Assembly: GCA_018436855.1 (NCBI GenBank)
Contig: JAHDKO010000029.1
Location: 13,157-77,156, forward strand
From: Deltaproteobacteria bacterium
Lineage (GTDB): Bacteria > Desulfobacterota > Desulfomonilia > UBA1062
Direction of reading: 5' to 3'
Length of the DNA: 64,000 nucleotides
The notes below the pieces were generated by a model. That model had not been told where the DNA came from. It did no database searches and worked only from the letters and a program-made list of their open reading frames with translations. Positions within the stretch are counted from its first letter, which is position 1, and each line of letters starts with the position of its first letter. Both the position numbers and the translations under genes were made by a program. This document shows positions 1 through 41,064 of the stretch, piece after piece.

Positions 1-1377
1 AGGGGGATTGTCAGTCAGGGGGCCTGCCGCCTTACCGGCAAAAACCGCCTGCGCGCGCCTCTTCGCGATCCTGCGGCCGATCTTTCGCTTCAGATACCAC
101 AAGCCCGGCCCCGGATCGCGCAGGTTGAAGGGCTCGATGATGGGGATGGTCGACATCACGGAGAGCACGTCTCTGAGCGAGTAGTCGCCTTGCTTCCATT
201 TCCGCTTCAGGTTGCCCAGGTCACGCTCGAGATCGATCCAGTATTTTTTGGCGTCCCGGGGCGCCTGCCGGTCCCCGCCGGATTCCGTTCCCGCGAGGTC
301 CCGGTATGCATGGTATGCCGCGTTCACGCCCATGCGTGTGGCGAGCATGATCTGTGACCAGCACCGGGGGTTGAGCTCAATGATCCGGTAGGTTCCATCG
401 CGCTCGTCTCTTCTGAACTCGATCTCGAATATGCCCCGGTAGTCCAGGTCTTTCAGGAGCCTGCGGCCCAGTGCGAGCAGCAGGGGAACATGGGCGCCGG
501 AAACAAAGGTCCCTGCGCCGAAATGGCTCTGCCTGAGCTTGTTGGTCATGACACAGCCCATGATCTCGCCTCCCCGCCCGCAGTATCCTGCCAGGGAGTA
601 CTGGTCTTGGTCCCTGCCCGGCACGATCTCCTGGATCACATATCTCATGCCCCTCTCCGACAGGTCGCGGCTGCAGCTTAGCAGCTCTTCGCGGCTGCCC
701 GCGACAAAGAGCTTTCTGCCCTCGGCCTGTTCGAGCAGAAAGGTCAGGGACGGCTTGACGATGCAGGGGAAGGAAATGCCTCCGATGTCCATGTCGCCGG
801 GCAACGTGCCGGCCGAGGGGAAAACAGTACTCGGGCACGGGAATCCGCGGTCGGTGAGCCGCCGGTAAAAGGCGGCCTTGTCGAGGGTGAGCGTCAGGGC
901 CTCGCGCGATGGGGAGACAATGTCAGCCAGCTCCTCGATCTCGTCGAACCGGCCGATGAGATAGCTCAGGACCGCGTCAGTGGTGGGAAAGATGATCGGA
1001 GGCCTGCCGGAATAGCGCCGGGCCAGAGAGCTCAGGGACCGCAGGATCTCGCACAGCCTGTCCGGGGCCGTGGATATGTCGGCCACCGTGATCCTGCTGC
1101 AGTAACGCGAAAAGTCGCGCGCGCTCACCGGCCCGTCGTCGATCACGATGCTTCGGACACCCTTTTCGCCGAGGCTCCGGATCAGGCCCAGGCCGTGGCC
1201 GCCCAGCACGACGGGAACGGATGCCTGCCGGGCGCAGAGCCCGGCGACCAGGCCATCCAGGCGATCGATGGCGCAGGTCACATGACCGGCCCCAAACCCG
1301 GCTCCGGCGTATACAGCCGGGAATGTGTCTCGACCTTCCAGGCCCCTTGAAGCGGATGCGAAAGAGGATCCAGGCAT
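1..1377 (-). CDS. ATP-grasp domain protein, 3' end truncated by the window edge
   Basis: I translated the minus frame continuously from the ATG at 1377 to position 1 with no stop. It contains the ATP-grasp hallmarks 'CIVKPS', 'YVIQEIVPG' and 'IFEIEF...ELNPR'. The next gene's stop at 1386 is tightly packed against its start. Confidence 0.8.
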   Translation of the reverse strand, partial: MPGSSFASASRGLEGRDTFPAVYAGAGFGAGHVTCAIDRLDGLVAGLCARQASVPVVLGGHGLGLIRSLGEKGVRSIVIDDGPVSARDFSRYCSRITVADISTAPDRLCEILRSLSSLARRYSGRPPIIFPTTDAVLSYLIGRFDEIEELADIVSPSREALTLTLDKAAFYRRLTDRGFPCPSTVFPSAGTLPGDMDIGGISFPCIVKPSLTFLLEQAEGRKLFVAGSREELLSCSRDLSERGMRYVIQEIVPGRDQDQYSLAGYCGRGGEIMGCVMTNKLRQSHFGAGTFVSGAHVPLLLALGRRLLKDLDYRGIFEIEFRRDERDGTYRIIELNPRCWSQIMLATRMGVNAAYHAYRDLAGTESGGDRQAPRDAKKYWIDLERDLGNLKRKWKQGDYSLRDVLSVMSTIPIIEPFNLRDPGPGLWYLKRKIGRRIAKRRAQAVFAGKAAGPLTDNPP

Positions 1378-1385
1378 CTGTGCCG

Positions 1386-2069
1386 TCATTGAACCGGTTC
1401 TTCCCTGACCAGCCTTTTGTGGAAGAACTCCTGCCACCGGTGCAAGGGGCTGGAGCAGAGCCTCACCCGTACACCCGCGCTTTGCCTGATCAAGGGCAGG
1501 AAGAAGTAACATCCCATCACGAAGCCGTAGAGCACGATCCCGAACGTCTGAAAGTGGTGCTTTGCAAGCGCGCGCTTCGACGGGAAATTCCGGTGGCGGA
1601 CGAATCCGTACACCCGGGTGTAGCCGAGCTTTGCCAGCTCGCGGAACGACTCGTTCATCAACAGGGGAAACACGTTTCTGCCGCGATGCTCGGGCGCTAC
1701 AAAGCCGTTGTAGATCATGACGCTCCTGTCTTCCATAGCGAACTCACAGTGCAGGTCGGGCGAGAAGATCGAGCAGGGGGCGAACCAGACAAACCCCGCC
1801 AGGTCCTCGCGGCACCACACGCAGAAGCACGGGTGACCCGAGGCGAGCCGGGTGCCGACCTCCTCACGGGTGAAGACGTTCGACCACCGGATGCACCGGC
1901 TGTCGTGGAACTCCATGAGTTCTGGAATCTCCGCCTCATCGAGCGTGCGCACCTCGTACCCGTCGATCCCCGGCATCCCGGGAGAGGAGGCGATTCCGGA
2001 TTTCCTGATGACATCGACCGCCTGCAGACTGAATGCATGCTTCACATACCATCGATAGTTCACGCTCAT
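1386..2069 (-). CDS. GNAT-fold acyltransferase, first of a tandem paralog pair
   Basis: The six-frame ORF track gives 1386..2114. I trimmed the start to the ATG at 2069, which has an AAGAGGT Shine-Dalgarno 8 nt upstream and aligns with the paralog start MNINLSWYRKH versus MSVNYRWYVKH. Conserved blocks FVWFAP, NGFV.P..RG and a C-terminal YG.V.G.YFFLP are present. Confidence 0.7.
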   Translation of the reverse strand: MSVNYRWYVKHAFSLQAVDVIRKSGIASSPGMPGIDGYEVRTLDEAEIPELMEFHDSRCIRWSNVFTREEVGTRLASGHPCFCVWCREDLAGFVWFAPCSIFSPDLHCEFAMEDRSVMIYNGFVAPEHRGRNVFPLLMNESFRELAKLGYTRVYGFVRHRNFPSKRALAKHHFQTFGIVLYGFVMGCYFFLPLIRQSAGVRVRLCSSPLHRWQEFFHKRLVREEPVQ

Positions 2070-2737
2070 GCAACAAGACCTCTTTTCCGGGCAAATGTCC
2101 GCCAGCGGTGCCATGGGCTGACCTCGAGCCGCAGGCGTATGCCCTGCTCTTTGTTCAGAAAGGGAAGAAAATAGTAATAGCCCAGCACATACCCGTAGAT
2201 GATGCTTCCGAAGGTGACGAACCCATAATGCCCCATGGCCTTCTTCGAGGTCCGGTTCGTGACCCGGGGATAGCCGTACACGGTTTTGTAGCCCGTCTCG
2301 GCCAGCCTCCGGAAGGATATCTCCATCATCTTAGGGCCCACCTTCATCCCGCGGTACGCGGGGTCGACAAAGCCGTTGTGGATGACCACGCTCGTGCTGT
2401 CGAGCTCGAAGGTGCAGCGCAGATCGGGCGAGTAGATGCTGCGGGGTGCGAACCAGACAAAGCCGGCCATGCGCCCCCCGACCCGGGCACAGGAGCATAT
2501 CTGCCCCGACGCGAGCCTCTCTTCGGCCTCTTGGGCGGTAAAGGCATGGTTCCATGCAATGCACTTTTTGTCGTGAAGATCCATGAGGGAGGGGATGTCA
2601 CCTTTGCTCAGGAGGGAAACCTCGATATCACCTGTCGATGTGATCTGCGGGCATATCCTCAAGTCGGGGAACTTGATCATATTCACCATGGAAAGGGAGA
2701 AAACATGCTTCCGGTACCAGCTGAGATTGATGTTCAT
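2066..2737 (-). CDS. GNAT-fold acyltransferase, paralog of the upstream gene
   Basis: The start at 2737 is preceded by AAAGGAGGTG with a 6-nt spacer. It is about 45% identical to 1386..2069 across the whole length and contains a YRGMKVG-type acyl-CoA binding motif. Confidence 0.75.
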   Translation of the reverse strand: MNINLSWYRKHVFSLSMVNMIKFPDLRICPQITSTGDIEVSLLSKGDIPSLMDLHDKKCIAWNHAFTAQEAEERLASGQICSCARVGGRMAGFVWFAPRSIYSPDLRCTFELDSTSVVIHNGFVDPAYRGMKVGPKMMEISFRRLAETGYKTVYGYPRVTNRTSKKAMGHYGFVTFGSIIYGYVLGYYYFLPFLNKEQGIRLRLEVSPWHRWRTFARKRGLVA

Positions 2738-2766
2738 CACGAGCACCTCCTTTTCTCTGTGGAAGA

Positions 2767-3873
2767 TCACGTCGAAGAGTAAAACGATTCGGCCGGGAAC
2801 ATGGCTCTGATGATCTCCCGGGCCACCGGGCGCACCTTGTGCCGGTTCTGCACCTCGTAGTGCACCAGGATGCCGGGCGAGGTGTTCACCTCGTTGATCA
2901 CATAGGTCCCGGGAAGGGCGGTGCGGATATCCCGGGCGATGAGGTCGATGCCTGCCAGCTTGATGCCGAGAAGGTCAACCACCTTTTTCCCCAGCGCGAT
3001 GAAGTCGGGCGACACCTCGTCGGTCACATCGTGATATGATCCGCCATAGAGCCAGTGGCAGATATCCTGAACGCTGACCTCCTCACCCTTGAGCGGGACC
3101 GAGTCCAGGGTGAGACCCTGCCTTTTCAACAGGCCGGCCAGTCCTTTGGTGACCGGGATCTTATAGAGGATGGGCCTGGTATTCGGGTCGTATTCCACCA
3201 GGCGCCCGTTTTCCATCCGGCCCGCATTGGCCAGGTCAATCAGGGCGCGCACGGTATGGGCCCCGTCGCCGATCACCCGGGCCGGGTCGCGTGAGCTTGC
3301 AGCCAGAAACGATCCCCGGCAGAAGAGCAACCGGTAGTTCGTGCCCTCGCAGAACTTTTCCACCAGGATCTCCCGGCCGAACATGCCGGCATGGTTGACC
3401 GCGCGCCACAGGGCAAAGGGCGTGGCCGGGTCGATGCACACGCCCCTGCTGTCGCCGGTGTTCTTTGCGGGCTTGATCACGACCGGAGCGCCGCACTTCC
3501 GCTGAAACTCCGCCGCCCCCCGGTAGTCGCCGCTCCTGAGGACCGCGTGATCAGGCACCGGGATGCCCTGCCTCCTGAGCAGGGAGTTGCAGAATATCTT
3601 GTCTCCCGCTATCATGAGCGAGGCCTCGCCGTCGAGGTCGGTGAAGGCATGGAAGATATTCTGCACCGAACCGTTCTTTCTGAGCTGGAGTATGTTGTTG
3701 TCGAGAATGCAGGTCTGAATGCCCAGGCCGGGGGCCTCGTGCAGGTAGTACGAGTATTCGAGCCCGGTCGTGCCGGGCTTGTTCCCGGACCGGACGACCG
3801 CGCTCAGCCTGTTCTTGAGCCTCCGGCCGTTCCGGAACAGCACGGGGCCCATTGAATCGAAGATGCGTGCCAT
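2767..3873 (-). CDS. ATP-grasp ligase, RimK or cyanophycin-synthetase-like
   Basis: Contains 'VVIKPAKNTGDSRGV' and 'ILVEKFCEGTNYRLL...VNEVNTSPGI'. The start is taken at MARIFDSM, with an AAGGAGGA RBS upstream; the R-rich N-terminal extension in the ORF track is rejected. Confidence 0.75.
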   Translation of the reverse strand: MARIFDSMGPVLFRNGRRLKNRLSAVVRSGNKPGTTGLEYSYYLHEAPGLGIQTCILDNNILQLRKNGSVQNIFHAFTDLDGEASLMIAGDKIFCNSLLRRQGIPVPDHAVLRSGDYRGAAEFQRKCGAPVVIKPAKNTGDSRGVCIDPATPFALWRAVNHAGMFGREILVEKFCEGTNYRLLFCRGSFLAASSRDPARVIGDGAHTVRALIDLANAGRMENGRLVEYDPNTRPILYKIPVTKGLAGLLKRQGLTLDSVPLKGEEVSVQDICHWLYGGSYHDVTDEVSPDFIALGKKVVDLLGIKLAGIDLIARDIRTALPGTYVINEVNTSPGILVHYEVQNRHKVRPVAREIIRAMFPAESFYSST

Positions 3874-4035
3874 TATCTTTTGAATCCTCCTTCGCCTACG
3901 CTTCCTAAAGGTCGGATGCGGGGCACATTCCCCGCTGCATGCAACAGGACCGGGTCCGGGTCTTGCCATGGGGTCCATACCGATGATCCGCCTTTCTTGA
4001 GAAAAAGACCGCAGCGGGTGCCCCGCGTATCCGGC

Positions 4036-5142
4036 CTATTCGTGAAACAACACCCCGTACTGGGCGAAGAGTCCCCGGTTTTTCGGCGTGAGCAGGCCCC
4101 CGTTCGCCGCCTGGAGGCCGGCGGTGCCCCACTCCTGGTTTGCCTCGATGATAACGGGTCCTTCAAGAGTGAACGCGATGTCCCAGCCGATGGACTTGAT
4201 GTAGTGAAACACCTGCTGGGCCTGCACCACGATCTTTGTCAGCTCGTCCCAGTGCGGCAGCTGAAACCCGGAAAACTCCGTGCCGGTCACGGGATGCCTG
4301 GTCAGCATCCTGCCCCGGGGGGTCGTGATCAGGCCCTCGCGCTTCAGCCTCCCGGTTTCCACGTCGATGCCCACTACCACGCCGCCGGCAGAGAAGTTGT
4401 CGATGGGGCTTGTCGACGAGCTCGTGCGCAGCATGGCCGCGACGATCTCCACCCGGTTGTCCCGGGTGAGAAAGGTGACGATTCTCACCGAGTTGACCGA
4501 ATGCGGGTTGATCCACCCAAGATCCGGGTGCTGGCGGATGACCTCCTGGATGAGGTAGTCGCTGTTTTCGTCATCCACATCGTCGTGCGCGACAATCCGT
4601 TCAAGGGCGTCCACGTCCTGTAAGGATATGAAGTGGATGCCCTTTCCCATCAGGCCCAGCACCGGCTTTATGACCACCCTTTCCAGGCCGTTCTCCTGCA
4701 TCAGCTCCTTGAGAAACACCCTGGCCTCGGGCAGGGCGTCGCGTTTCACCAGGCCGTAGCACCGCGGGCAGGGCAGCCCGTGGTGCTCGCACAGGCAGGA
4801 GAACAGATATTTGTCGTGCACCAGAATGTGGTGGGTCTTCTTCCACAGAGTATTCCTCAGCTTCGGACGTAAAAGGGGGGCGTGGGGATCGTCCATATAC
4901 TCCTTGAACCTCCTTCTCTCCATGGTATCGAACCTGAACAGGTGATAATGCGAAGGCAGGATCCCCAGCACGAAGAACAGGTAGAGATAGTCTATGACCC
5001 GGGTGAGGGCCGGCTTGGCATGGTTGCCGTCTCCACCCATGCCCGGGTCGCCAAACCCCCTGAACAGGTCATTGATCCTGCCGTAGTGGGCCGCATATTG
5101 CCTGATCACGTTTATGGCTTCGACAATACGCATATTCTTCAA
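4036..5142 (-). CDS. sugar-transfer-associated ATP-grasp protein
   Basis: 368 aa. 'VVIKPVLGLMGKGI', 'YLIQEVIRQH' and 'GPVIIEANQEWGTAGLQ' are typical of the ATP-grasp family found in EPS loci. Confidence 0.75.
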   Translation of the reverse strand: MKNMRIVEAINVIRQYAAHYGRINDLFRGFGDPGMGGDGNHAKPALTRVIDYLYLFFVLGILPSHYHLFRFDTMERRRFKEYMDDPHAPLLRPKLRNTLWKKTHHILVHDKYLFSCLCEHHGLPCPRCYGLVKRDALPEARVFLKELMQENGLERVVIKPVLGLMGKGIHFISLQDVDALERIVAHDDVDDENSDYLIQEVIRQHPDLGWINPHSVNSVRIVTFLTRDNRVEIVAAMLRTSSSTSPIDNFSAGGVVVGIDVETGRLKREGLITTPRGRMLTRHPVTGTEFSGFQLPHWDELTKIVVQAQQVFHYIKSIGWDIAFTLEGPVIIEANQEWGTAGLQAANGGLLTPKNRGLFAQYGVLFHE

Positions 5143-5305
5143 TTCTCATTCGCGCTCGCTTCTGAAGGACAAGGAGGCCAGGCCTGATTCCCGTTGAAAC
5201 TTGCTGCTTCGAAAGGGTCCAGGGCTTGCCTGAAAAAAGTCCATACGATTGATTCAGCGGCACCACCGCCTTGTTGCGGCGGTGCCGCTGAATAAATGTG
5301 CATGA

Positions 5306-8300
5306 TCAGCGCATGGACGGCGGTCTCTGATTGAAGTCGTAATACTCGTATGCCGGCTCGATGGCGTTGAGCAGCGCCAGAATCTGGTCGTCGGTGTAGC
5401 CCAGGAGATAGCGCCTCAGATATTCCGGCGCGAGGATCTCGTTGGTGTCTCTGCTCGCGAAGAAGAAGACGCCCCGGTTGAAGGCCCCTACATAGTAGTT
5501 CGACGAATTGCACCCGCCGTAGAACATCCGGGAATAGCGCATATCCTCGGACGGGATCTTGATCGTGCCCGTGTTGCAGATGACCTTGCCGAACTTGATG
5601 AGCGACCCAGAATAGAAGTGGGGCTTTTCATGGAAGGTGTTGTCCACGAACTCGATGGCCACCATGTTGCAGATATAGTTCTGCTCGGTCTCGCTGTCCT
5701 GCCCGTCCGGGCCCGAGACCGTGAGCCTCACCGTGAAGAGGCCGATGTCCGTGTATATATGGGTGGGGTTTCGCTCCGTGCTCGTGGTCCCGTCGCCGAA
5801 ATCCCAGAACCACGAGGTGATGTTCCCGGTGCTCCGGTCCTGGAAATGCACAATGGTTCTCTCCGCGCTGTTCCTCCGGGATGCAAAGAACTCGGCGCGA
5901 AGCGGTGCAGCGACGCCTGCCGCAATGAACCCATCCTTGACCTCGGTGTGCTGGTTCCCCATGACATCGGTGATGGTCAGGCTCACCGTGTAGACCCCGG
6001 GCTCTTCATAGACGTGCCCAGGGTTTTTCGCCGTGCTCGTGGTGCCGTCGCCGAAGTCCCAGAGTCGTGACCGTATCGAGGCCCCGTCGCCGAAGATATC
6101 CCAGAGACTCTCGTTGTACGTCATGCTTCTGTCTGAGAACTGCACGGCCAGAGGGGTGCCGCCGGATACGATGTCTGTATCGAACTCCGCCTGGAAAAGG
6201 GCGGGGTTGTCCATGCAGTTGAACACAATTGCGTCGGCGATCACCCTTCCATCCGCATCGTCGGTGATCTCGACCACGGCCGTCCCCGCATCGAAATAGA
6301 AGGTGCCGATAGATTTGACCAGTGAGAGCAGAGGCTCCTGCTGGTTTACCTCTACGGTGGTGGCACCCCCTGCATGGTGGACGATGTATCTGGTGTTGGT
6401 GGCATTGCCGGAAGACGGATACCACGAGGCCAATACGTTGTAGTTGCCGGGATGTCTCAGATAGATGGAATACGCCGCCTTGTTCTCGCCCGTGCCCGCC
6501 GGGCGGTACTGGTAGTTGTAGCCCAGGTACCCGGACTCTCCCAGGTAGCCGCCGCCCGGGATCTGGCCTATGGCCCAGGTCCCGGTGAAGTCGCAGTGGT
6601 TGAAGTCGGGATCGGAATTGGTGATGAAATATTCGGGGTTCCTCGCCGGATCGGGAGGGGTCCCGTCTGCCGAGAACCAGGCCGGCGTGTTGGCGTCGGG
6701 GAACCGCTCCAGGTAGCTCCCGTCAGAGAGCTCCACCTTGTATACAGCAGGATCTCCCGGGATGGTGTAGGTGAGATAGTAGTTGTACGGCGGGGTTCCC
6801 TGGCTGAATGTGTACGGCATCAGCGCGCTCCTCCCGTCCTTGAACACCGGGTTCCAGTTGGGGTAGGCCTGGCCGTAGCGCATGCCGTCGGGCTTCACGG
6901 ACACCATCTCGGTCGAGTAATTCGTGAATCGGTCGTCGTCCACGAAAAAGATGTTGTCGATCCGCTGGTTCTGGATCTCCCGGGAGTCGGCAAAGGTGGC
7001 GCCGAAGCCGAAATTGGAGTGGCCGTTGAACACGATGTGGGACCCCTCGTCCTTCAGGGCGAACTCCATGGCCTCCGGGGTGCGGACCGTAAAGATGTGA
7101 TAGGTCACGCCCTTGACCGGATTGGTGTATACCCACACGCCGCCCTGCTCGGTGGCTCCGATGCCTGCCAGGTACTCGTAGCACCGGGGCAGGAACAGGG
7201 CGTTCTTGGAGTAGCCGTCGACGAGATAGATCCTCTCCGCTGCCTCATACACCCGGATATAGGCGTCGCGCACCATGGTGTCGGAACCATAGGCATTGGT
7301 TACGGTGAGCGAGACCCGGAAGGTTCCGGCCCGGGTATACTGGTGCACCGGGTCCTTGAGCGTGCTGGTGAAGCCGTCTCCGAAATCCCAGAGCCGGCTG
7401 TCCACCTGCCCGGTGCTCTGGTCGTAGAACCTGACCGTGCACGGGATCCCGCCCGTGGTTTTGTCCGCGGTAAAGCTGGCCGCCGGCGGGTTGTTTCCCG
7501 GTTCATCGGCCGGAACGAACCGAACCGCGTCCGCGCAGGTGCTCACCGTGGAGCCGTACGAAGCGGTGATCGTCACCCTATAGGACTGTGAAGCTTCGAA
7601 GAAATACACACCCAGGCTGTTCCACCGGCTTCCGTTCTGCTGCTGGTTGATCGTGAGTGTGGTGGATGCCGGGCCGCCGTCATAGTGCTCGATCGCCACG
7701 GGCACGCTCGTGCTCCTGGAAGGCCACTCGGTCCACCACATGGACACCTCGTAGTAGCTCGAAACCACAGGGGTGAAGGTCCAGGTAAAGGTGTTGCCGT
7801 CGCGGCTCCACTGCGAATCCGGGCCGTACGATCCCGAGCCGCCGGAAACCGGCCAAAGCCCGGTGAACGACGCTGCGCTGCTGTTGTTGTCGATGATCAC
7901 CTCATCGGGTGCCCCGCCCACAACCAGGTTTGCGGAGGCGGGCTCGGACCACAGGCCTTCTTCGTCCCGGACAAAGAAGGATATGGTGTGGGCGCCTTCA
8001 CTCAGGAACGAGACCGTGCACGATGCCGAATCGCAGAACTCGCCGTCCAGGTCGGACTCCCACAGCCAGTCGACGATCGGGCCCTCATTGTCGGTCCCGT
8101 GGCCGGTGAACGTTACCGGCTGCCCGGGCTGAGCAGGGTTGGGCGCGATGGAGTCGATATAGGCCAAGGGCGGGCTGTTGCCGCCTACATACTCGAACAG
8201 GACCGCGTCCGCGCAGGTGCTCACCGTGGAGCCGTAGGCAGCGGTGATCGTCACCCTGCTTGACGAATCGAGGTAAAAGCTCCCCAGACTGTTCCACCTG

Positions 8301-8662
8301 GCCGCATTCTCCCGCTGGTTGATGCTGAGCGTGCTCACCCCGTCCGCGTGACGGACCTGGACCGGCACCGACGAGGCCCGGGAAGGCCACGACGACCACC
8401 ACATGAAGATCTCGTACACACCGGCCGGCTGGGAGCCCAGGGCCCAGGTGTAGGTGTTGCCGTCGCGCGACCACTGGCTGTCAGAGCCGTAATGGTCGTT
8501 TCCGCCCGAAACCGGCCAGGGCCCGGTGAACGATGTGCCGGGATCGCCGTTGTCCACCAGGACATCGGCACGGACACCCGCGGGCATGCATGTCAGGATC
8601 ATCAGCGCGACCACTGCAGCGAGGAGCCTGCGCCACTCGATACAGGACGGTTTCCCTGTCAT
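5306..8662 (-). CDS. large secreted multidomain protein with three golvesin-C-terminal-like domains, three PKD domains, and central and C-terminal domains of unknown function
   Basis: The signal peptide is MTGKPSCIEWRRLLAAVVALMILTCMPAGVRA, so the start is taken at 8662; the ORF track extends it to 8773. A roughly 130-aa domain occurs twice (ORF aa 70-196 and 292-421) with the motif SxWxxSRDGNTxTW...YEIxMWWxxWPSR..SVPV...H.DG......INQ..N..RWNSLG......VTI.A.YGSTVSTCADAV.F, and a third divergent copy ends ADAIVF. There are three WDFGDG(T/F)TST PKD domains. Confidence 0.8.
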   Translation of the reverse strand: MTGKPSCIEWRRLLAAVVALMILTCMPAGVRADVLVDNGDPGTSFTGPWPVSGGNDHYGSDSQWSRDGNTYTWALGSQPAGVYEIFMWWSSWPSRASSVPVQVRHADGVSTLSINQRENAARWNSLGSFYLDSSSRVTITAAYGSTVSTCADAVLFEYVGGNSPPLAYIDSIAPNPAQPGQPVTFTGHGTDNEGPIVDWLWESDLDGEFCDSASCTVSFLSEGAHTISFFVRDEEGLWSEPASANLVVGGAPDEVIIDNNSSAASFTGLWPVSGGSGSYGPDSQWSRDGNTFTWTFTPVVSSYYEVSMWWTEWPSRSTSVPVAIEHYDGGPASTTLTINQQQNGSRWNSLGVYFFEASQSYRVTITASYGSTVSTCADAVRFVPADEPGNNPPAASFTADKTTGGIPCTVRFYDQSTGQVDSRLWDFGDGFTSTLKDPVHQYTRAGTFRVSLTVTNAYGSDTMVRDAYIRVYEAAERIYLVDGYSKNALFLPRCYEYLAGIGATEQGGVWVYTNPVKGVTYHIFTVRTPEAMEFALKDEGSHIVFNGHSNFGFGATFADSREIQNQRIDNIFFVDDDRFTNYSTEMVSVKPDGMRYGQAYPNWNPVFKDGRSALMPYTFSQGTPPYNYYLTYTIPGDPAVYKVELSDGSYLERFPDANTPAWFSADGTPPDPARNPEYFITNSDPDFNHCDFTGTWAIGQIPGGGYLGESGYLGYNYQYRPAGTGENKAAYSIYLRHPGNYNVLASWYPSSGNATNTRYIVHHAGGATTVEVNQQEPLLSLVKSIGTFYFDAGTAVVEITDDADGRVIADAIVFNCMDNPALFQAEFDTDIVSGGTPLAVQFSDRSMTYNESLWDIFGDGASIRSRLWDFGDGTTSTAKNPGHVYEEPGVYTVSLTITDVMGNQHTEVKDGFIAAGVAAPLRAEFFASRRNSAERTIVHFQDRSTGNITSWFWDFGDGTTSTERNPTHIYTDIGLFTVRLTVSGPDGQDSETEQNYICNMVAIEFVDNTFHEKPHFYSGSLIKFGKVICNTGTIKIPSEDMRYSRMFYGGCNSSNYYVGAFNRGVFFFASRDTNEILAPEYLRRYLLGYTDDQILALLNAIEPAYEYYDFNQRPPSMR
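7511..7900. repeat. intragenic domain-duplication repeat, copy 2, about 666 bp from copy 1
   Basis: The DNA around 7537-7590 is near-identical to the DNA around 8209-8260 (gtccgcgcaggtgctcaccgtggagccgta...gcggtgatcgtcaccct). It encodes the second golvesin-like domain. Coordinates are approximate. Confidence 0.6.
8186..8566. repeat. intragenic domain-duplication repeat, copy 1
   Basis: Encodes the first golvesin-like domain and shares long near-identical nucleotide stretches with copy 2. Coordinates are approximate. Confidence 0.6.
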
Positions 8663-8949
8663 CAATCCGGGCTCCGGTTCCGGGCGCCCTTTCATAGGGG
8701 AGACGCTCAACCGGGGCCGCGGGATCTGATGAATCATCCTATTGTCAGTGTTTCTCTCCAACTTTTCTCTCATGCCTTCTTAGCCTCCTTCTCGACAAAT
8801 GGATTTCTTGGACCCCAGGGCAAGCCTTGGACCCGGTTGAAACCTGAAAACGGCAGTGAATGTGACCCCTGCCTTCAAGGTCCTCAAGAAATTGACCTTC
8901 GAAGGAGGCTTCTCGCAAGCTCTCCTGCCAACCGTATCTTCTCACTCCT

Positions 8950-10143
8950 TCAATCCGCATCCCCGGCCGCGCGCGCCGGGTGATTTCCGGCCATCCCGAA
9001 CCCTGCGAGCAGATGATCAACGATCCGCCCGGCAGCCTTGCCGTCACCGTAGGGGTTGTGGGCAAAGCTCATTCGCCCGTACAAAACCTTGTCCCGCAAA
9101 AGGCGGTCAACCTCGCGGAAGATCTTCTCCCTGTCGGTTCCTGCCAGCCTCACCGTGCCCGCCTCCACCGCCTCGGGCCGCTCGGTGACCTCGCGCATGA
9201 CAATGACCGGCTTGCCCAGACTCGGCGCCTCTTCCTGAATTCCCCCCGAATCCGTCAGGACGAGATATGCCCGGCTCATGAGCGCCACGAAAGGCTCGTA
9301 GTCCAGGGGGGGCAGGAGAAGGATGTTGCCCCTGTTCCCGATGATCCGGTGCACGGGCTCGAACACGCTGGGATTGAGGTGTACGGGGTAGACAAAGAAG
9401 ACATCGGGCCAATGCCGTGCAAGATCGGATACGGCCAGGCAGATATTCTCCAGGCCCTGCCCGAAGCTCTCCCTCCGGTGGCCCGTGACCAGCACGATCC
9501 TGTCCGTGTCTTTCAGCCCGTCCAGGGGCCCGAGCTCTGCGGCGTACCGGGAAAGCGGGCCCGCATGACCTTTTCCGATCCGGCGAGCGGTGTACCGGAG
9601 GGCATCGATCACCGTGTTGCCGGTGACCAGGATGTTTTCGGGCGGGATGTTCTCCCTGATCAGGTTCGCCCTTGCGGTTTCCGTGGGCGCGAAATGCAGG
9701 CCTGCCACGGCCCCGGCGAGGCGGCGGTTCATCTCCTCGGGGAACGGGCGGTATTTGTCATGGGTGCGGAGACCGGCCTCCACGTGCCCCACGGGTATGC
9801 GCCGGTAATATGCGGCCAGGGCCGCGGCAAAGGTGGTGGTGGTGTCACCGTGGACCAGGACCATGTCCGGACGGGCGCGATCCAGCACCTCGCCCGCGCG
9901 TTCCAGAATCCGCGCGGTCAGGGTGGAGAGGCTCTGACCGGGCAGCATGACGTTCAGGTCAAAGTCCGGAACGATGCCGAACAGGACGAGCACCTGGTCC
10001 AGCATCCGCCGGTGCTGGGCCGTGACGCACACCAGCGGCTCGACCGGACATCCTCCGGCCTTTCTCCTGTTGAGCTCCAGGACCACGGGCGCCATCTTCA
10101 CGGCCTCGGGCCTGGTTCCGAAAACAAGCATGATTCTGATCAT
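8950..10143 (-). CDS. wecB: UDP-N-acetylglucosamine 2-epimerase, non-hydrolysing
   Basis: Classic WecB/MnaA sequence: [20 protein letters not shown]..., [47 protein letters not shown]. Confidence 0.9.
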
Positions 10144-10184: not shown

Positions 10185-11033
10185 CTATCCCGGTTCGGGA
10201 TCATCCCCCCGGACAACCCTGCACAGGGACAGCAGCAGGAAGAGCGACACGAGATAGATCATGAGTCCGGCATATTCATGGAAAAAACCCTCTGCGACCG
10301 CACTCCCGTAGAAGTGCGCCAGAACGCCCGTGGCCACCACTCTCACCGCGTTGGCGAACACGGTAATGGGAATCACCAGCAGGATGACCAGGGCCCTCTT
10401 CCAGTTCTTTTTGAGCATGATGCAGGCCACGACCGACCCGATGGCGAAAAGGGAGATCAGCGAGCGAATGCCGCTGCAGGCATCGGCCACCTCCAGGGTC
10501 GTGTTCGCCAGGTGCACGAGGTTTCCCTCGCGAAGGACCGGTATGTGGAGCAGGGTGAGGCTCATTGCGGCGCAGCAGGAGGTGAAGAGCTTCAGGGGAA
10601 AGGCGATGCTGTCGTAGAGCATGTAGGGTATGGGGATCATGAACATGAGAAAGGCCAGTGCCGGAGATACAGACTTGAGCATGCCCCTGCCGAAAAAGAG
10701 CAGCACCATGCCGGCCATTACCACGAGCAGTGAAAACCGCTGCAGAAAGAGCTCGGCGCCCGCGCGCCCGGCCACCAGCATGGCCAGGCCCGCCCCCATG
10801 AGCACCAGCCCCGGGAACGAGGGCCTTTTTATCCGGTTCAACCGGACCAGATGCGCCCTCTTGCGCCAGAGAAGGTAGAGGGAGACAACCGGCACCACGA
10901 AGCCGTGGGAGTAGTTGGGGTCCTTCCACCAGTCGAAGACGAGCTTGAGCAGAACTTCGTGGTATACGAGCACCACGAGCGCGATCAGGCCAAGGACTTT
11001 CAGATAGGGCATCACAATTGTCAGGGGAGACAC
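10185..11033 (-). CDS. exosortase, XrtA/EpsH-like, copy 1
   Basis: 282 aa polytopic membrane protein with the exosortase motifs [23 protein letters not shown] and NAVRV. It overlaps the downstream EpsI gene. The ORF-track start is a GTG, so the start is uncertain. Confidence 0.85.
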
Positions 11034-11662
11034 TGCATCATGTGGGGGTACAGGCGGGAGGCAAACGCCTGCAGGCGTTCCTCGGCCTCGGGCACGGACA
11101 GGGCTGCATCCGTGGAGATGCGCACCAGCGCGCCGTCGTTCCTCCCCAGGACTATGGTGTCAAGAATCAGATAGAGCTTTTCGCGGTATTCGCTGGTGAT
11201 CACCCTGCCCCTGGACTGAAACCAGTAGTACACCACCTGCATGCCATCGTCCTTGCGGATCAGGAGCCTGTTCACGGGGATTTCCCCGCCGGGCGCCGGG
11301 GCCAGTGGGATAACCCTTGTCTCGCAGGACGCCACCTCCCATCCGCTTCCCGTATAACAGCGGCGCGGCGAATGAATGGTGCGGCCCACGCCCTGGCGGC
11401 TGTAAAACCCGATGTACACCGATACCGGCGGACGATCGGGTGCTGCATACGCCCGCATGATGTACTGATCGACCCCGGCGTTCTCCAGGGTGCCGGCATC
11501 GAAGGTCATGGAGATTCCGCTCCATGTATCCAGCGTCAAGGGAATATCCTCCAGCGCCCTGACAAGCGGGGTCTGTCCGGCCCTGTCCATGGCCTGCAGG
11601 CACCCCATGGTGATCAGGAGCAGGATCACCGCCCCCGGGAAGTGAAGACTTATTTTCATCAT
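11021..11662 (-). CDS. EpsI-family exosortase-associated periplasmic protein, copy 1
   Basis: 213 aa with signal peptide MMKISLHFPGAVILLLITMGCLQA and a CYTGSGWEV block as in EpsI (the methanolan locus partner of EpsH). It sits directly upstream of the exosortase and overlaps it. Confidence 0.75.
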   Translation of the reverse strand: MMKISLHFPGAVILLLITMGCLQAMDRAGQTPLVRALEDIPLTLDTWSGISMTFDAGTLENAGVDQYIMRAYAAPDRPPVSVYIGFYSRQGVGRTIHSPRRCYTGSGWEVASCETRVIPLAPAPGGEIPVNRLLIRKDDGMQVVYYWFQSRGRVITSEYREKLYLILDTIVLGRNDGALVRISTDAALSVPEAEERLQAFASRLYPHMMQCLP

Positions 11663-23124: not shown

Positions 23125-24243
23125 TCACACATCCCAGAAAACCTTGTCACCGTCTCCAAAGGTATAAAACCAGTTTTCGCCCTTCCCGATCCCTGCAGGC
23201 CGGCCTGCGGCCCCGGAATGGATGTACTTGAGCGCTCCGGGGTTTTCCCTTGCGTGCACAAACCCCATCGTCTTGAGCACGCGGGCAAACCTCCTGTCCG
23301 TGCACAGCACTTCCAGCGTGTCGGGGCCGGTCTTCTCGATCTCGAGCACGGCCCGCCTCATCAGGGCCCTGAACAGATCTGCATCCCGGGGAGAGCAGAG
23401 AAAATCAAAGATGGTGGAGATCCTCCTGCCGTCCTGCGCGCGCCTGGTCCTGAAGACCAGGTATGCCTGCACATTATCCCCCTTTACGCAGATCAGCCTG
23501 ACGAAACGGGCGCTTGGGCTGTCTGCAAACTTCCAGTTCAGGATGGCGCCGTTGCGATGCGCGATAAAGGCGAACTCGTGCTTCACGGCGTGAAACAATT
23601 CATCTATCCGCTCATCGAAACCATCCGTGAGCTCGATGCGATATCCCCGGCCGGAGAAATCAAACGCCTTTTTCTCCAGCCGGTAGAGCAGCGAGAGGAC
23701 CTTTCCGGCCGACTGCTCGACAGCGGCGTTGATGAGGCGATATCGGGTTTTCACCATGTTCCTCAGGCTATACCCCCGCACATAGGTGGGGAGATTCTCC
23801 ACGGGGAGCCACCCGCACTTTCCGAAGACATGGCTGTTGGCGGCGTTCATCCACACCGCAAGGGAAAACTCGGGCCTGTTCTGAAGAATTGCCTGCACAA
23901 ACGCCCTGCCCACGCCTTTGCCTCTCATCTCCGGGGCGACCATGGTATCGTGGTAGATGAACCCGTCCACATCGCGGCCTGAGACACTGAATCGAAACGG
24001 CATCAGACCCTCGTAGGCAACCACCCTGCCGTCCAGCACGAGCACCAGGTAATCGTCGCGGGTGCTGCTGAACGGGTTTCCGCTCAGCAGCCGGTGAAAC
24101 GCGCGCGCCCTTTCCGAGGCAAACGCCTCTCCGGCCTGGGCATTCCAGAAACGCTCAAAGACGCGCAGGTCGCCCTGCCGGAACCGCCGCATGCATTGGG
24201 CGCAGCCATCGGCGCCCTGATCGGGATATCCGGTGGTATCCAT
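23125..24243 (-). CDS. two-domain GNAT or FemAB-related acyltransferase, resembling PEP-CTERM-locus-associated FemAB-like proteins
   Basis: 372 aa. The N-terminal half has the acyl-CoA motif VAPEMRGKGVGRAFV; the second half is a FemAB-like helper domain. Confidence 0.65.
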   Translation of the reverse strand: MDTTGYPDQGADGCAQCMRRFRQGDLRVFERFWNAQAGEAFASERARAFHRLLSGNPFSSTRDDYLVLVLDGRVVAYEGLMPFRFSVSGRDVDGFIYHDTMVAPEMRGKGVGRAFVQAILQNRPEFSLAVWMNAANSHVFGKCGWLPVENLPTYVRGYSLRNMVKTRYRLINAAVEQSAGKVLSLLYRLEKKAFDFSGRGYRIELTDGFDERIDELFHAVKHEFAFIAHRNGAILNWKFADSPSARFVRLICVKGDNVQAYLVFRTRRAQDGRRISTIFDFLCSPRDADLFRALMRRAVLEIEKTGPDTLEVLCTDRRFARVLKTMGFVHARENPGALKYIHSGAAGRPAGIGKGENWFYTFGDGDKVFWDV

Positions 24244-24344
24244 GGGTTTTATCCGTGAAACCTTATCCGTGAAATGATTCTTTTTCTAAGGACCATGTGC
24301 GGGCACATCCGGGCCCGCACGTGCAAGAAAATGCCTTTACCCGC

Positions 24345-25436
24345 CTATTCAAGGGCGGAACCATGTCCCGGGCACGCCCTGTTCGCGCGGCTTATGGACC
24401 GTTTCACCCATACCATGTGATGGACGTTCATCACGAATCGATGGTCGCTCATGGCACTTTCGATTCCATAGCGGTGGTAGCAAAAGCGATCGGTATCCGG
24501 GTAGTTCGGTCCTCTCATCATGGTTACCGAGCAGTATATGTTGTTGCGGATCAGAAGATCCCGGGTCATCTCCCCGAAATCCCCTGCTTCGCCGTTGGGA
24601 TAGCTGAACAGGGTGCACGGCCTTCCCGTGATTGCGCACACGCGGTCGATGGAAGACCGGATCTCGTGCTCCTGGGCATCTTCGGTCAGCAGACTGAGGA
24701 TCGAGTGGGTATGGGTGTGAGCGCCGAACTCGATGAGCCCGCTCTTGTGCATCTCCTGTATGTCACGGCTGTTCAGAATACGGAAGGGACTGTTCTTAGG
24801 GAGCCCGCTGCCGGGGTCGAATCCGAGTGCGGCAATGATGTCCCCGACCTCCTGCACCAGAACATCCTGCGGCATCTCCTTGAGAATTCCCTGAAGCGTC
24901 AGGCAGGCATGAACCCGGTTTCCGGGGTTTGTCAGATCGAAGCGCCGGTCACGCCACACAATGCTTCTTTTGTTTGTCTCGGAGAATGCGCGGTTCAGGG
25001 CACAGTACCAGATGGTGTCGTCGGTGTCGGTCAGACTCGTGACGAGAAACACCGTGGCCGGAAGCCCCAGTTCCTTCAAGACGGGAAAGGCGTTGTCGTA
25101 TACGTTCTGAAAACCGTCGTCAAAGGTGATGGACAAGAGCGGCAGCACCGGTTTTTTTCGTGAGACCGCAAGATCGAGCGCCTGAGAGAGCGGCACCACG
25201 GTGAAGTGCCGCTTTACATAGAGCATCTGGCTGATGAACCTGTCCCTGGCGATGAAGCACTCATCCGGGATCGGCAGGTCTGCATTCCTGACACCGTGGT
25301 ACGTGATAACGGTATGTGCCTTCCTGAAGAGTGTTCTGTTCAGAAACCGTGGTAACCGGGTTATGGCAAGTCCTTGGTATATTCTCTCTTTTGTTTCACG
25401 AGATAAGAGTTTGATTCTTCTGTCCGTGTTTTCCAA
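24345..25436 (-). CDS. polysaccharide deacetylase, CE4/NodB-type
   Basis: ITFDDGFQNVYDNAFPVLKELGLPATVFLVT and HTHTHSIL histidine motifs are present. Confidence 0.85.
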   Translation of the reverse strand: MENTDRRIKLLSRETKERIYQGLAITRLPRFLNRTLFRKAHTVITYHGVRNADLPIPDECFIARDRFISQMLYVKRHFTVVPLSQALDLAVSRKKPVLPLLSITFDDGFQNVYDNAFPVLKELGLPATVFLVTSLTDTDDTIWYCALNRAFSETNKRSIVWRDRRFDLTNPGNRVHACLTLQGILKEMPQDVLVQEVGDIIAALGFDPGSGLPKNSPFRILNSRDIQEMHKSGLIEFGAHTHTHSILSLLTEDAQEHEIRSSIDRVCAITGRPCTLFSYPNGEAGDFGEMTRDLLIRNNIYCSVTMMRGPNYPDTDRFCYHRYGIESAMSDHRFVMNVHHMVWVKRSISRANRACPGHGSALE

Positions 25437-26715
25437 GGGTATCGGAATTCCTGTTTATTTCGCCGGGCAGCTGCTGTTTCTGCTCCCGGCTTCCTGCCCG
25501 TCCTTCACCGTTCTGAGATGCCGGCACCGTCCGAGCCGGCATGGTTCCGGATCGGGCCCTGTGATTGCTCTGCGGCCGGTTCTCCTGTTTCGGTGAACCG
25601 GCCCCTGCCCGGGCGTGCATCCGGACCGTAATTCCGTCACGGATCCGCCGGGCGATATAGGGGCCTATCTTGTGCACCTTTCGCGCCCTTTTCATCTGAT
25701 ACATCATCTGAATCCACCGGGTATGGAACTCATCGTACATCGTCCAGAAAGCGGCATACCGGCTCATGGCGATGGGGGCGGACAAGATCCGCATCCGGGC
25801 CTCGAAACGCCCGGGATCGTCCACAACGGCTACGCGCAGGTCTTTTGCGGTCCTGCACCCGGTCAGACTCACCCGGTGGATGCCTGTCTCCGAGATATCG
25901 GCCGATAAAACAGCGGATTCTCTCCTGGCACGATTGAGCTTCATGAAAGAATGCACCACCTCGCCCTCGCCGTTCACCCACCGCCAGTCGAGATCGGAGA
26001 ACAGGAAGTTGCCGAGGCTGTAGGCGATATAGCCCTGACGATAGCGTTCGATGCCCTGCAGCACGTGGGGATGATGCCCGATGACAAGGCCGGCCCCCAT
26101 GTCGATGATAGCGCGGGCGGTCCGAACCTGATCGGGGGCCGGGTAGCGCCAGTCTTCCTTTCCCCAGTGCAGACAGACCGCGACGGCATGGACCCTGCCC
26201 TCGAGCGATGCGATGGCATGCGCGAGCTCCTCGAGGTCGAGCGGGGCGATGCCCCTCTCCGGACCGGAGGCATAAAACGGCGAGTCGATCGTCACCTCTG
26301 ATCGCGACAGAACGCCCAGAGAGATGCCCTTCCGTTCGATGATCGCAGGCCGGTTCGCCTCTTCGAGGCAGGCGCCCGCTCCGAACCATCCTATGCCCTG
26401 CGCGTCCAGGCAGGCCATGGTTTCGTACATGGCCTGCTCTCGGTAATCCAGGATATGGTTGTTGGCGAGCGACAGGGCGGTGAACCCGGCATCCTTCATG
26501 CCGGCGGCATATCCCGGATGAGCCTTCAGGCTCACCTTGCCGGGATACGGTTCACCTCCGAGGCACAGGGGGGCTTCGAGATTCCCGATCAGGATGTCGT
26601 GTCCCGCGAGCGTCTCCCGGATGCACCCGAACGGGTAATGGGGGCCCTTTGCCTCGTACAGTGCGTCGTAACCGTGTGTCAGGGCGATGTCGCCTACGAA
26701 ACCGATCTTGATCAT
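25396..26715 (-). CDS. CapA-family (PGA_cap) metallophosphatase-like capsule biosynthesis protein
   Basis: The start is taken at MIKIGFVGDIALTHGYDA (AAGGA RBS); the ORF-track N-terminal 271 aa are R/H-rich artefact. It contains GHDILIGNLE, NNHILDY and GHHPHVLQG. Confidence 0.75.
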   Translation of the reverse strand: MIKIGFVGDIALTHGYDALYEAKGPHYPFGCIRETLAGHDILIGNLEAPLCLGGEPYPGKVSLKAHPGYAAGMKDAGFTALSLANNHILDYREQAMYETMACLDAQGIGWFGAGACLEEANRPAIIERKGISLGVLSRSEVTIDSPFYASGPERGIAPLDLEELAHAIASLEGRVHAVAVCLHWGKEDWRYPAPDQVRTARAIIDMGAGLVIGHHPHVLQGIERYRQGYIAYSLGNFLFSDLDWRWVNGEGEVVHSFMKLNRARRESAVLSADISETGIHRVSLTGCRTAKDLRVAVVDDPGRFEARMRILSAPIAMSRYAAFWTMYDEFHTRWIQMMYQMKRARKVHKIGPYIARRIRDGITVRMHARAGAGSPKQENRPQSNHRARSGTMPARTVPASQNGEGRAGSREQKQQLPGEINRNSDTLGKHGQKNQTLIS

Positions 26716-26744
26716 GGCTTTGTCCTTATGTCTTTGTATTTGAA

Positions 26745-28112
26745 TCACTGAGGCAGCGGGATCAGCCTCTTGGCAAAGAGATACTTGCCGGATTTTTCGC
26801 GGGGTATCTCGTCCACGAACTCGTAGGTGATCCGCATCTTCGCGCCAAAGAGCTTTTCCACGATTCTGGCCTGGTGATCCATGACCTCTTTGCCTGGAAT
26901 CAGATCGCGCGTCATCTTCAGGGTGATGTGATCCGCGGCATCTTGGATGGCCTGCATCTGGCCGAAAAACCCGGGGGCCGCATTCACCATGTACATCACC
27001 ATGGCAATGGTCGATACCAGCCTGCCCTCGGGCGTGACGAACACATCGAGCGCGCGGCCCACGATCTCTTTCATCAGGGGCAGGCCCCTGCCGCAGGGAC
27101 AGGTCCTGTCGCTCAGGACCGCGGTGTCGCCCATGTAGTAGCGGATCAGGGGCATGCCGTAGTTCAGCAGGTCGGTGACGAGCACGTTGCCCGCCTGCTC
27201 CCCGGACGAGGCCATGGGCCGGGGATCGTCCAACTCCAGGTAGAGGCACTCGGCATTGATGTGCATGCCCGAGCGGGCACCGCATTCCTGGGCCATGGGA
27301 CCTGCCTCGCGCGAGCGGTACGAGTCCTGGATATCGCAGTGGAACATATCGGCCACCAGACGGCGCTGATGGTCGTAGAGCGGCTCGCCGGTGGTGATGA
27401 GGCCCTTGAGCCGGTATCCGTCGATTCCTTTTCTTGCCATGTATTTCGCGAGCTCGTGGATGGGGCTGCTGAACGCCAGGATGGTGGTGGGTTTTTTCAG
27501 CTTCAGCACGTTCAGGTATTCGCTGCACGCCCGGTCATCGATCACGGCTGACGCAAAGAGCACGATCCGTTTGTAGAGCTCGTTTCGCATCCTCGACTTG
27601 AGCGTGCCGTAGCCCATGAAGTCCTGGTGGGCCGGCCAGACCAGCCCCATATAGTCGCCGAAGTCCCATCCCGCCCACCGGCCGAACCGGTAGATGGCCG
27701 CCTCTTTCATGGACAGGCATTTGTTGTCGCGGTAAAACCGCATCTTCACCTCCGAGGTCCCGCCGGTCTCGGCGTAGTGGATGTCTTCCGGGCGATAATT
27801 GCGCGCGATGAGACGGGGCATGTTGTCCCGTATCTGCTCCTTGGTGAGCACGGGTATCTTGAGCAGCTGGTCCGGATGCCGGAAGGTATAGGGGTTGAAG
27901 CCGGCGTCGTCGAACCTCTTCCGGTAGAATTCCGTGTTCTCGTAGGCGTGCACCAGGAGATTTTTCAAGCGATCCCGCTGCAGCTCGGCGATCCGGTGGT
28001 AGGGCCAGAACTGGCTCTCTTCGAGTGAGCGCAGGTTACCCATGATCCCGCCGAGACCCTCCCGGCGTGCGATGAGAGGAAAGGTGACGTTCTTGATCAC
28101 GTTTTTGAGCAT
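26745..28112 (-). CDS. phenylacetate-CoA ligase-like adenylate-forming enzyme, CapK/PaaK family
   Basis: 455 aa: RNYRPEDIHYAETGGTSEVKMRFY, TTGEPL, LVTDLLNYGMPLIRYYMGD, CPCGRGLP. Confidence 0.8.
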   Translation of the reverse strand: MLKNVIKNVTFPLIARREGLGGIMGNLRSLEESQFWPYHRIAELQRDRLKNLLVHAYENTEFYRKRFDDAGFNPYTFRHPDQLLKIPVLTKEQIRDNMPRLIARNYRPEDIHYAETGGTSEVKMRFYRDNKCLSMKEAAIYRFGRWAGWDFGDYMGLVWPAHQDFMGYGTLKSRMRNELYKRIVLFASAVIDDRACSEYLNVLKLKKPTTILAFSSPIHELAKYMARKGIDGYRLKGLITTGEPLYDHQRRLVADMFHCDIQDSYRSREAGPMAQECGARSGMHINAECLYLELDDPRPMASSGEQAGNVLVTDLLNYGMPLIRYYMGDTAVLSDRTCPCGRGLPLMKEIVGRALDVFVTPEGRLVSTIAMVMYMVNAAPGFFGQMQAIQDAADHITLKMTRDLIPGKEVMDHQARIVEKLFGAKMRITYEFVDEIPREKSGKYLFAKRLIPLPQ

Positions 28113-34154: not shown

Positions 34155-34162
34155 GCTCGTGC

Positions 34163-40054: not shown

Positions 40055-40063
40055 GGCGTCTCT

Positions 40064-40966: not shown

Positions 40967-41064
40967 GAATGTCTACAGGTGCTCTCGTCTCTTTAGAAGA
41001 AAAGGAAAGGGAACGAATGCCCTGTTCCCTTTCCGGACTCGTTTTTAATCAAAGATAAAAAGCC

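Follow-up and report, generated by a model that had tools for sequence, protein, structure and literature searches.

A conserved ATP-grasp and GNAT gene module in an exopolysaccharide locus and its possible role in amino-acid decoration of a surface polysaccharide

Introduction

What do three ATP-grasp ligases and two GNAT-fold acyltransferases make when their genes stand side by side in an exopolysaccharide (EPS) locus? Polysaccharides decorated with amino acids are chemically well known; their enzymology has been solved in very few cases. The locus considered here lies in a stretch of 64,000 nucleotides from a Deltaproteobacteria bacterium (assembly GCA_018436855.1, contig JAHDKO010000029.1, positions 13,157 to 77,156), hereafter called the window, and the five genes occupy positions 1-5142 of its minus strand. 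An original prediction had described them as three different ATP-grasp ligases and two tandem paralogous GNATs of about 225 amino acids (aa), tightly packed with gaps of 0-160 base pairs (bp) at the distal end of an exosortase EPS operon. Apart from the word “distal”, which turned out to be a window-edge artefact, this description was borne out. We favor, with moderate confidence, a function in which the genes belong to a module that modifies, in the cytoplasm, the repeating unit of a surface polysaccharide of the Wzx/Wzy type by adding one or more amide-linked, N-acylated amino acids or a short peptide. Our confidence in any single step that we propose below is much less than in this general statement.

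Results

Five co-directional genes

All five genes are read in the same direction, and the assignment of their folds holds in profile as well as in structure comparisons. By increasing coordinate they encode ATP-grasp A (1..1389, minus strand; 463 aa inside the window), a member of the PRK12767/2pn1/PylC-like group of carboxylate-amine ligases; GNAT1 (1386..2069, minus strand; 227 aa), an acyltransferase that has one GNAT domain and belongs to a rare family; its tandem paralogue GNAT2 (2066..2737, minus strand; 223 aa); a stand-alone ATP-grasp that resembles the G domain of cyanophycin synthetase, here named CphA-like (2767..3873, minus strand; 368 aa); and the sugar-transfer-associated ATP-grasp ATPgrasp_ST of family PF14397 (4036..5133, minus strand; 365 aa). 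Gene starts were refined using orthologues and ribosome-binding sites. Exact database entries match the refined GNAT1 (227 aa), GNAT2 (223 aa), ATPgrasp_ST (365 aa) and CphA-like (368 aa) proteins; for the last of these, the NCBI gene call on the contig of the window has 361 aa. A strong Shine-Dalgarno site, AAGGAGG, is located upstream of GNAT2.

The junctions, counted from ATP-grasp A to ATPgrasp_ST, measure -4, -4, 29 and 162 bp. The stop of GNAT2 and the start of GNAT1 share a 4-bp ATGA overlap, as do the stop of GNAT1 and the start of ATP-grasp A, and these overlaps indicate translational coupling. ATPgrasp_ST is set apart by gaps of 162 bp and 172 bp on its two sides.

Three unrelated ATP-grasp ligases

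The three ligases are different from each other, since pairwise BLASTP comparisons revealed no significant similarity between any of them. The ATP- and Mg-binding motifs are kept in all three. ATPgrasp_ST scored 202.1 bits against PF14397 (gathering threshold 31.4; 1.3e-59; profile positions 10-272 of 278), and its family assignment is unambiguous. The gene resides in a cell-surface polysaccharide locus, with WecB, GT4 glycosyltransferases, Wzx, Wzy and exosortase genes around it. The CphA-like protein (2767-3873) gave 191 bits against NF010623 (cutoff 877), restricted to profile positions 180-475 of 871, and matched the cyanophycin synthetase structure PDB 7lgn at 4.1e-35. It carries the motifs VIKP and EVNTSP, and its matches to Ngg (TIGR03103; 126 bits, cutoff 569, 1e-36) and to GshAB were weaker than that to CphA. 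Enzymes of this group lengthen peptides or amino acids at their carboxylates. ATP-grasp A possesses the lysine and the acidic/asparagine residues typical for the superfamily. Its score against ATPgrasp_Ter (PF15632) was 22.9 bits and thus under the gathering threshold of 29.1; some of its orthologues do have a precomputed match. The protein has 22 detectable relatives. Single-sequence queries with ATPgrasp_ST and ATP-grasp A recovered no relatives from the PDB. All three ligase types have relatives that couple carboxylates to amino-acid amines.

Several known enzymes were considered and rejected. Cyanophycin synthetase (TIGR02068/NF010623) has an N-G-M architecture of about 870 aa. The CphA-like protein has neither the N nor the M domain; it covers the G-domain region only, with a score far under 877, and therefore cannot be a cyanophycin synthetase. 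Scores against the NCBIfam models of housekeeping ATP-grasps were 48.1 for Ddl (cutoff 245.65), 34.6 for RimK (143.4) and 23.2 for PurK (327), a carbamoyl-phosphate synthase (CPS)-like model reached 50 (cutoff 218), and the GshAB, Ngg and CphA models likewise scored far below their cutoffs. The view that these are not ordinary enzymes of primary or nucleotide-sugar metabolism therefore stood. A system for a graspetide, a ribosomally synthesized and modified peptide, would pair a precursor gene with an adjacent ATP-grasp of the MdnB/MdnC type; no precursor open reading frame (ORF) was seen, and a CapB/PgsB-type ligase was not found. Hence the analogies that had been drawn to graspetides, cyanophycin and poly-gamma-glutamate synthesis are unsupported. 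Literature searches on ATPgrasp_ST/PF14397, on ATP-grasp plus exosortase and on the M. maripaludis threonine-transfer gene turned up nothing useful.

A rare pair of GNAT acyltransferases

Both acyltransferases were recognized by PF00583 (Acetyltransf_1), with 26.5 bits for GNAT1 and 26.8 bits for GNAT2 (cutoff 20.7), placing them in the GNAT fold. They share 46% identity over 225 aa in a gapless alignment (BLASTP 2e-76). Neither of them matched any NCBIfam family at E<=0.01, and the suggestion that they might be exosortase-associated acyltransferases of TIGR03694 is accordingly dropped. Membership of the FemAB/MurM enzymes was also rejected, because no Fem, Acetyltransf_6 or FemAB_like match (PF02388, PF13480, PF04339) appeared at E<=0.01 and because the two proteins are single-domain chains of 223 and 227 aa, not two-domain proteins of 330-420 aa. 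All Fem-like genes found belong to sister loci or are fused to distant relatives of the GNATs. The top three structural matches, MshD, GlmA and MAB_4324, all have a tandem-GNAT architecture. By analogy, GNAT1 and GNAT2 are probably a tandem GNAT split into two genes, the heterodimer equivalent of MshD, to which the sequence identity is 17%.

The family is rare. A word-indexed search of 5.8 billion clusters yielded 14 members, and an exhaustive HMMER search of 1.84 billion representatives yielded 22 clusters at E<=1e-30, two of which are close. A scan of GTDB genomes with the GNAT alignment recovered at least one locus; this is an undercount, and the exhaustive profile search was used instead.

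The genes form the front of a larger conserved module

The operon had appeared to end with ATP-grasp A because the window merely stops inside this gene, 3 codons short of its stop. The full-length protein of 466 aa is encoded on contig L020 (GCA_018435705.1), which is 99.5% identical over 12 kb; there, genes for an APH-like kinase of 600 aa and a CE4 deacetylase of 339 aa come after ATP-grasp A, before the contig ends. In relatives whose nucleotide identity is 94%, 88%, about 74% or lower, the genes that come next encode Wzx, one or two GT4 enzymes, a PHP phosphoesterase and a ligase of the ATP-grasp_3/Ter type; one of these relatives also has Wzy. The five genes are therefore the promoter-proximal front of a conserved module of about 13 genes, which in full consists of ATPgrasp_ST, the CphA-like ATP-grasp, two GNATs, ATP-grasp A, the APH-like kinase, CE4, Wzx, one or two GT4s, PHP and ATP-grasp_3. 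The module CE4 has intact TFDD and HTRSH motifs and lacks a signal or transmembrane segment. The APH-like kinase contains the motifs HGDFKLEN and DWD. This protein (L020:12158-13960) is kinase-like in its C-terminal half only, with a weak match to the ACAD11 kinase domain (2.7e-6); for its N-terminal ~300 aa no match was obtained, and they might represent a degenerate domain of the Rossmann or methyltransferase-like kind.

Conservation was scored by tblastn over six lineages (L011, L001, L003/L007, L010, L014 and L017). The CphA-like ligase (52-94% identity), GNAT homologues (22-95%), ATP-grasp A (48-91%), the APH-like kinase, CE4, Wzx and GT4 are present in all six. The PHP phosphoesterase was found in five, and the L017 locus stops before that position. 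An orthologue of the ATP-grasp_3 type occurs in L003, L007, L010 and L014, and precomputed Pfam matches show one that starts at the end of L001. In L010 the order is permuted to ST-GNAT-CphA-GNAT-A. In L003-L008 (about 74% identity) ATPgrasp_ST is reduced to a remnant of 51-68 aa, for example 68 aa around L003:7812-8018; having decayed in one lineage, this ligase is therefore accessory. Taken over all six lineages the block is neither scattered nor absent, in agreement with the co-occurrence that the prediction had named as a check.

In L014 and L017, genes for C39-like peptidases and FemAB-like Acetyltransf_6 proteins are inserted among the ATP-grasp genes (Acetyltransf_6 or Peptidase_C39_2 at L017:2439-3881, L014:5993-6679, L014:8687-9844 and L017:8229-8933). 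Judged from their domains, these inserts in sister loci would fit aminoacyl or peptide chemistry. The FemAB-like gene in L017 is fused to CysS_C, the C-terminal domain of cysteinyl-tRNA synthetase, a hint of aminoacyl-tRNA use.

Fusion proteins link deacetylase, GNATs and ligase

Distant relatives of the two GNATs occur as fusions (P0059, P0058, P0057, P0063, P0080, P0110 and P0060). P0059, encoded in the locus L019:3-5596, joins CE4, GNAT, GNAT and ATP-grasp in one chain of 1111 aa. Over 395 aa, the ATP-grasp portion of this protein shares 28% identity with ATP-grasp A (5e-38), and the CE4 portion aligns with the module CE4 at 1.5e-24. The gene adjoining P0059 encodes an ATP-grasp fused to a GT4 glycosyltransferase. 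P0058 consists of GNAT, GNAT and ATP-grasp. Several distant members of the GNAT family are GNAT-GNAT tandems, and others carry FemAB_like or radical-SAM domains, including one fusion of Acetyltransf_6, GNAT, radical SAM/SPASM and GNAT and another type that joins FemAB_like to GNATs. The contexts of P0058, which lies on a short contig, and of a 31%-identical relative of ATP-grasp A (L015) were uninformative. From the fusions, and from the ATP-grasp-GT4 gene beside P0059, we infer a single substrate shared by the deacetylase, the two GNATs and ATP-grasp A, namely a glycan intermediate. The need for ATP and acyl-CoA, together with a CE4 enzyme that has no signal or transmembrane segment, would place the action in the cytoplasm.

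Discussion

A candidate route for amino-acid decoration of the repeat unit

The observations are compatible with the following sequence of events. WecB and the GT4 enzymes would assemble a lipid-linked oligosaccharide containing sugars of the GlcNAc/ManNAc type. The signal-less CE4 would then strip an N-acetyl group and bare the sugar amine. ATP-grasp A, which is similar to PylC and L-amino-acid ligases, could convert a carboxylate to its acyl-phosphate and then form an amide with the sugar amine; alternatively, a uronate carboxylate might be activated and an amino acid added to it, as in the Cj1438C system discussed below. The CphA-like ligase would lengthen the free alpha-carboxylate by one residue, and ATPgrasp_ST together with the downstream ATP-grasp_3 may add or vary further residues. 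The GNAT1/GNAT2 pair would N-acylate a free amine, the APH-like kinase and the PHP phosphoesterase would process a phosphorylated donor or intermediate, and Wzx would finally flip the completed unit.

A number of points weigh against this proposal. The L003-L008 loci have no EpsH, EpsI, WecB or Golvesin genes within 10 kb of the module. Since these loci lack a nearby exosortase as well as an intact ATPgrasp_ST, the link to the exosortase and the role of ATPgrasp_ST are loose, and the module moves independently of exosortase genes. The scan of window ORFs turned up neither a UDP-sugar 6-dehydrogenase nor a DegT protein, so that a uronate acceptor stays hypothetical. The roles suggested for the kinase and the phosphatase are drawn by analogy only, and the organism is known from metagenome-assembled genomes only.

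Other products and targets

Ligases and acyltransferases of this kind could also modify a protein, as do RimK, tubulin-tyrosine ligase and CfmP, with the Golvesin_C/PKD protein encoded next to the cassette or a PEP-CTERM protein as candidate target. Five of the six lineages have the Golvesin_C/PKD gene next to the cassette, C39-like peptidase genes occur in two sister loci, and in Klebsiella a TupA-like ATP-grasp is needed for modification of the fimbrial protein FimA and does not act via surface polysaccharide (PMC13419641). However, the candidate targets are secreted proteins, whereas predictions place the enzymes in the cytoplasm as soluble proteins, the L003-L008 loci keep the module without a Golvesin gene, the fusion partners are CE4 and GT4 and not protein-binding domains, and no PEP-CTERM tail was seen on the proteins neighboring the cassette. 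We therefore regard a protein target as unlikely. Similarly small is the probability that we assign to an unattached small molecule, for instance an osmolyte or signal of the N-acyl di- or tripeptide kind, comparable to N-acetylglutaminylglutamine amide, made by enzymes that are merely co-located with EPS genes. Such a product would suit the CphA-like ligase, which matches the ATP-grasp part of Ngg at 1e-36, the combination of GNAT and ATP-grasp, which is the architecture of Ngg, and the AsnB-like gene upstream. Yet the Ngg score remains at 126 against a cutoff of 569, GT, Wzx and CE4 genes enclose the cassette in six lineages, relatives occur as fusions with a polysaccharide deacetylase and adjoin an ATP-grasp-GT4 fusion, and ATPgrasp_ST is sugar-transferase-associated by definition.

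If the product is attached to a glycan, it might still be a poly-amino-acid of the cyanophycin, poly-glutamate or teichuronopeptide type and not a short side chain. The teichuronopeptide of Bacillus halodurans is a precedent for an anchored poly-amino-acid. The nearest characterized relative of one of the ligases is the polymerizing G domain of cyanophycin synthetase, and the locus has RimK-like and PGA_cap genes further upstream. Against this, CphA M and N domains and a CapB/PgsB-type ligase were not found, four dissimilar ligases suggest stepwise, residue-specific addition, and capping by GNATs suits a short chain, so that a polymer seems improbable to us. That ordinary housekeeping enzymes (Ddl, PurK/PurT, carbamoyl-phosphate synthase and RimI-type acetylases) have come together by chance is practically excluded. 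Weak partial matches to the Ddl, PurK and CPS-like models exist, but all scores stay far under the curated cutoffs (Ddl 48 versus 246, PurK 23 versus 327, CPS-like 50 versus 218), and a GNAT family of 22 clusters at E<=1e-30 in 1.84 billion representatives with strict synteny to EPS genes would hardly be expected of such an assembly.

Relation to known systems

The statement that no pathway of this kind had been characterized was too strong. In the HS:2 capsule of Campylobacter jejuni, the ATP-grasp domain Cj1438C amidates glucuronic acid with ethanolamine phosphate or serinol phosphate, and Cj1435 then removes the phosphate (PMC11800379). Moreover, a prediction from 2009 (Iyer et al., as it is cited in PMC13419641) held that ATP-grasps in polysaccharide loci add amino acids, an idea for which there is one biochemical proof, obtained with this TupA-like enzyme (PMC11800379). 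Cj1438C resembles the module ligases in being an ATP-grasp in a polysaccharide locus that is physically linked to glycosyltransferases and forms an amide on a growing glycan, and its phosphorylated amine donor with the later phosphatase parallels the APH and PHP genes. The Pfam families differ, however, Cj1438C being TupA-like (PF14305) and the module enzymes ATPgrasp_ST, CphA-like and PRK12767-like. Furthermore, the Cj1438 system has one ligase where the module has four, and it has no GNAT pair, CE4 or kinase.

Mycothiol synthesis offers a similar logic, in which the deacetylase MshB, the ligase MshC and the tandem GNAT MshD act in succession. In contrast to the module, MshB is of the LmbE type and not CE4, MshC is related to aminoacyl-tRNA synthetases and not to ATP-grasps, the product is a small thiol, and MshD is the distant match described above. 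The best sequence match of the 2767-3873 protein is the G domain of CphA1, which attaches an amino acid to a C-terminal carboxylate after activating it; unlike CphA1, the 2767-3873 protein has no N domain and no Mur-like M domain. In the Ngg system, a GNAT and an ATP-grasp cooperate toward an N-acylated peptide, but the module GNATs do not match the Ngg model and their context is EPS and not osmolyte synthesis. Peptidoglycan synthesis by Mur ligases, Ddl and FemXAB is likewise a stepwise, ATP-dependent, non-ribosomal addition of amino acids to the carboxylate of a lipid-linked sugar, in the cytoplasm and before flipping, and FemAB-like genes appear in the sister loci of the module. However, Mur ligases have another fold, no MurNAc/lactyl chemistry is evident in the module, and the window GNATs are not Fem-like. 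In Caulobacter, the Wzx/Wzy-type holdfast adhesin polysaccharide is tailored by a CE4 deacetylase (HfsH) and a GNAT-type N-acyltransferase (HfsK); holdfast synthesis involves no ATP-grasp ligases, and NCBIfam matches to HfsH and HfsF were weak and far under cutoffs. Thus, while the general chemistry has precedent, the module as predicted is distinct in its ligase families, the number of ligases, the rare split-tandem GNAT and the coupling to a cytoplasmic CE4, a kinase and a PHP enzyme.

The module represents a compact, conserved and evolutionarily coupled set of a deacetylase, up to four ligases, a split tandem GNAT, a kinase and a phosphatase, and its reconstitution in vitro could reveal a new glycan-peptide linkage chemistry. 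The hosts are Desulfomonilia-like bacteria of anaerobic digesters, where a polymer of this kind could influence how sludge granulates and how biofilms behave. Digester samples underlie the assemblies GCA_018435705.1, GCA_018433775.1 and GCA_018433085.1, and the 90%-identity cluster that includes the window's pyrophosphatase has members labeled Desulfomonilia or Deltaproteobacteria bacterium that come from anaerobic digesters. A bolder idea, to which we give very little weight, is that the four ATP-grasps build a multi-residue, N-capped peptide stem on the EPS repeat unit, a peptidoglycan-like “glycopeptide EPS”, and that this decoration serves as the nucleophile for attachment of exosortase substrates, by analogy with the sortase/Fem cross-bridge of lipid II. 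If the decoration were indeed the acceptor for exosortase-sorted proteins, the old question of PEP-CTERM sorting would become testable.

Genomic surroundings

The EPS locus extends from position 1 to about 37011, with all genes on the minus strand. Directly upstream of the cassette, the intergenic gap between ATPgrasp_ST and the Golvesin_C/PKD gene (5134..5305, minus strand) contains a long GC-rich hairpin, TTCAGCGGCACCGCC-GCAACAA-GGCGGTGGTGCCGCTGAA, read off the sequence, with a T-run slightly downstream. This element is a possible terminator or attenuator, in which case the cassette would be transcribed as a unit of its own; consensus scans of the region for terminators and promoters were not above chance. 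The adjoining gene (5306..8773, minus strand) encodes a secreted protein of 1155 aa with three Golvesin_C and four PKD domains (Pfam) and an N-terminal hydrophobic segment. In five of the six lineages the gene keeps its place beside the module. We treat it as a context gene and assign it no catalytic part in the cassette. The motifs HIVFNGHSN and FYGGCNSSN in its central and C-terminal part could belong to a split His/Cys peptidase similar to clan CD; no PDB relatives of the central region were found.

Further upstream follow the UDP-GlcNAc 2-epimerase WecB (8950-10143, minus strand; TIGR00236, 483 bits, cutoff 210), the exosortase EpsH (10185-11033, minus strand; TIGR02602, 198.8 bits, cutoff 105.55; XrtA 207.4, just under its cutoff of 208) and EpsI (11021-11662, minus strand; TIGR02914, 139.9 bits, cutoff 42.8). 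With Wzx, Wzy and GT2 and GT4 transferases also present, the exosortase EPS context is firmly established. The locus further holds two hexapeptide acetyltransferases, a GFO/epimerase fusion and an AsnB-like protein. It also contains what looks like a second amide/acyl set (23125-28112 and 33117-34286), composed of the third GNAT of the window (372 aa; 23125-24243, minus strand), a CE4 deacetylase, a PGA_cap (CapA-like) protein, a PaaK-like AMP-ligase and the fourth ATP-grasp of the window, which is RimK-like (33117-34286, minus strand). The 710-aa PGA_cap ORF overlaps the ligase gene, and its true start is therefore probably near 26740.

The gene at 35407-37011 encodes a protein of 534 aa in which an EpsI-type domain is restricted to residues 334-529, and the N-terminal 330 residues matched no exosortase model at 1e-4 or 1e-5. 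This product may be a divergent exosortase-EpsI fusion, in which case the locus would have two exosortases, together with at least two Wzx genes. Past 37.3 kb the window encodes a Liv-type ABC transporter, a V-type ATPase, a pyrophosphatase, UvrC, PlsB and enolase. The transporter genes (37308-42177) comprise a complete system for branched-chain amino acids, with two ATPases, two permeases and a binding protein, and lie on the same strand directly upstream of the EPS locus.

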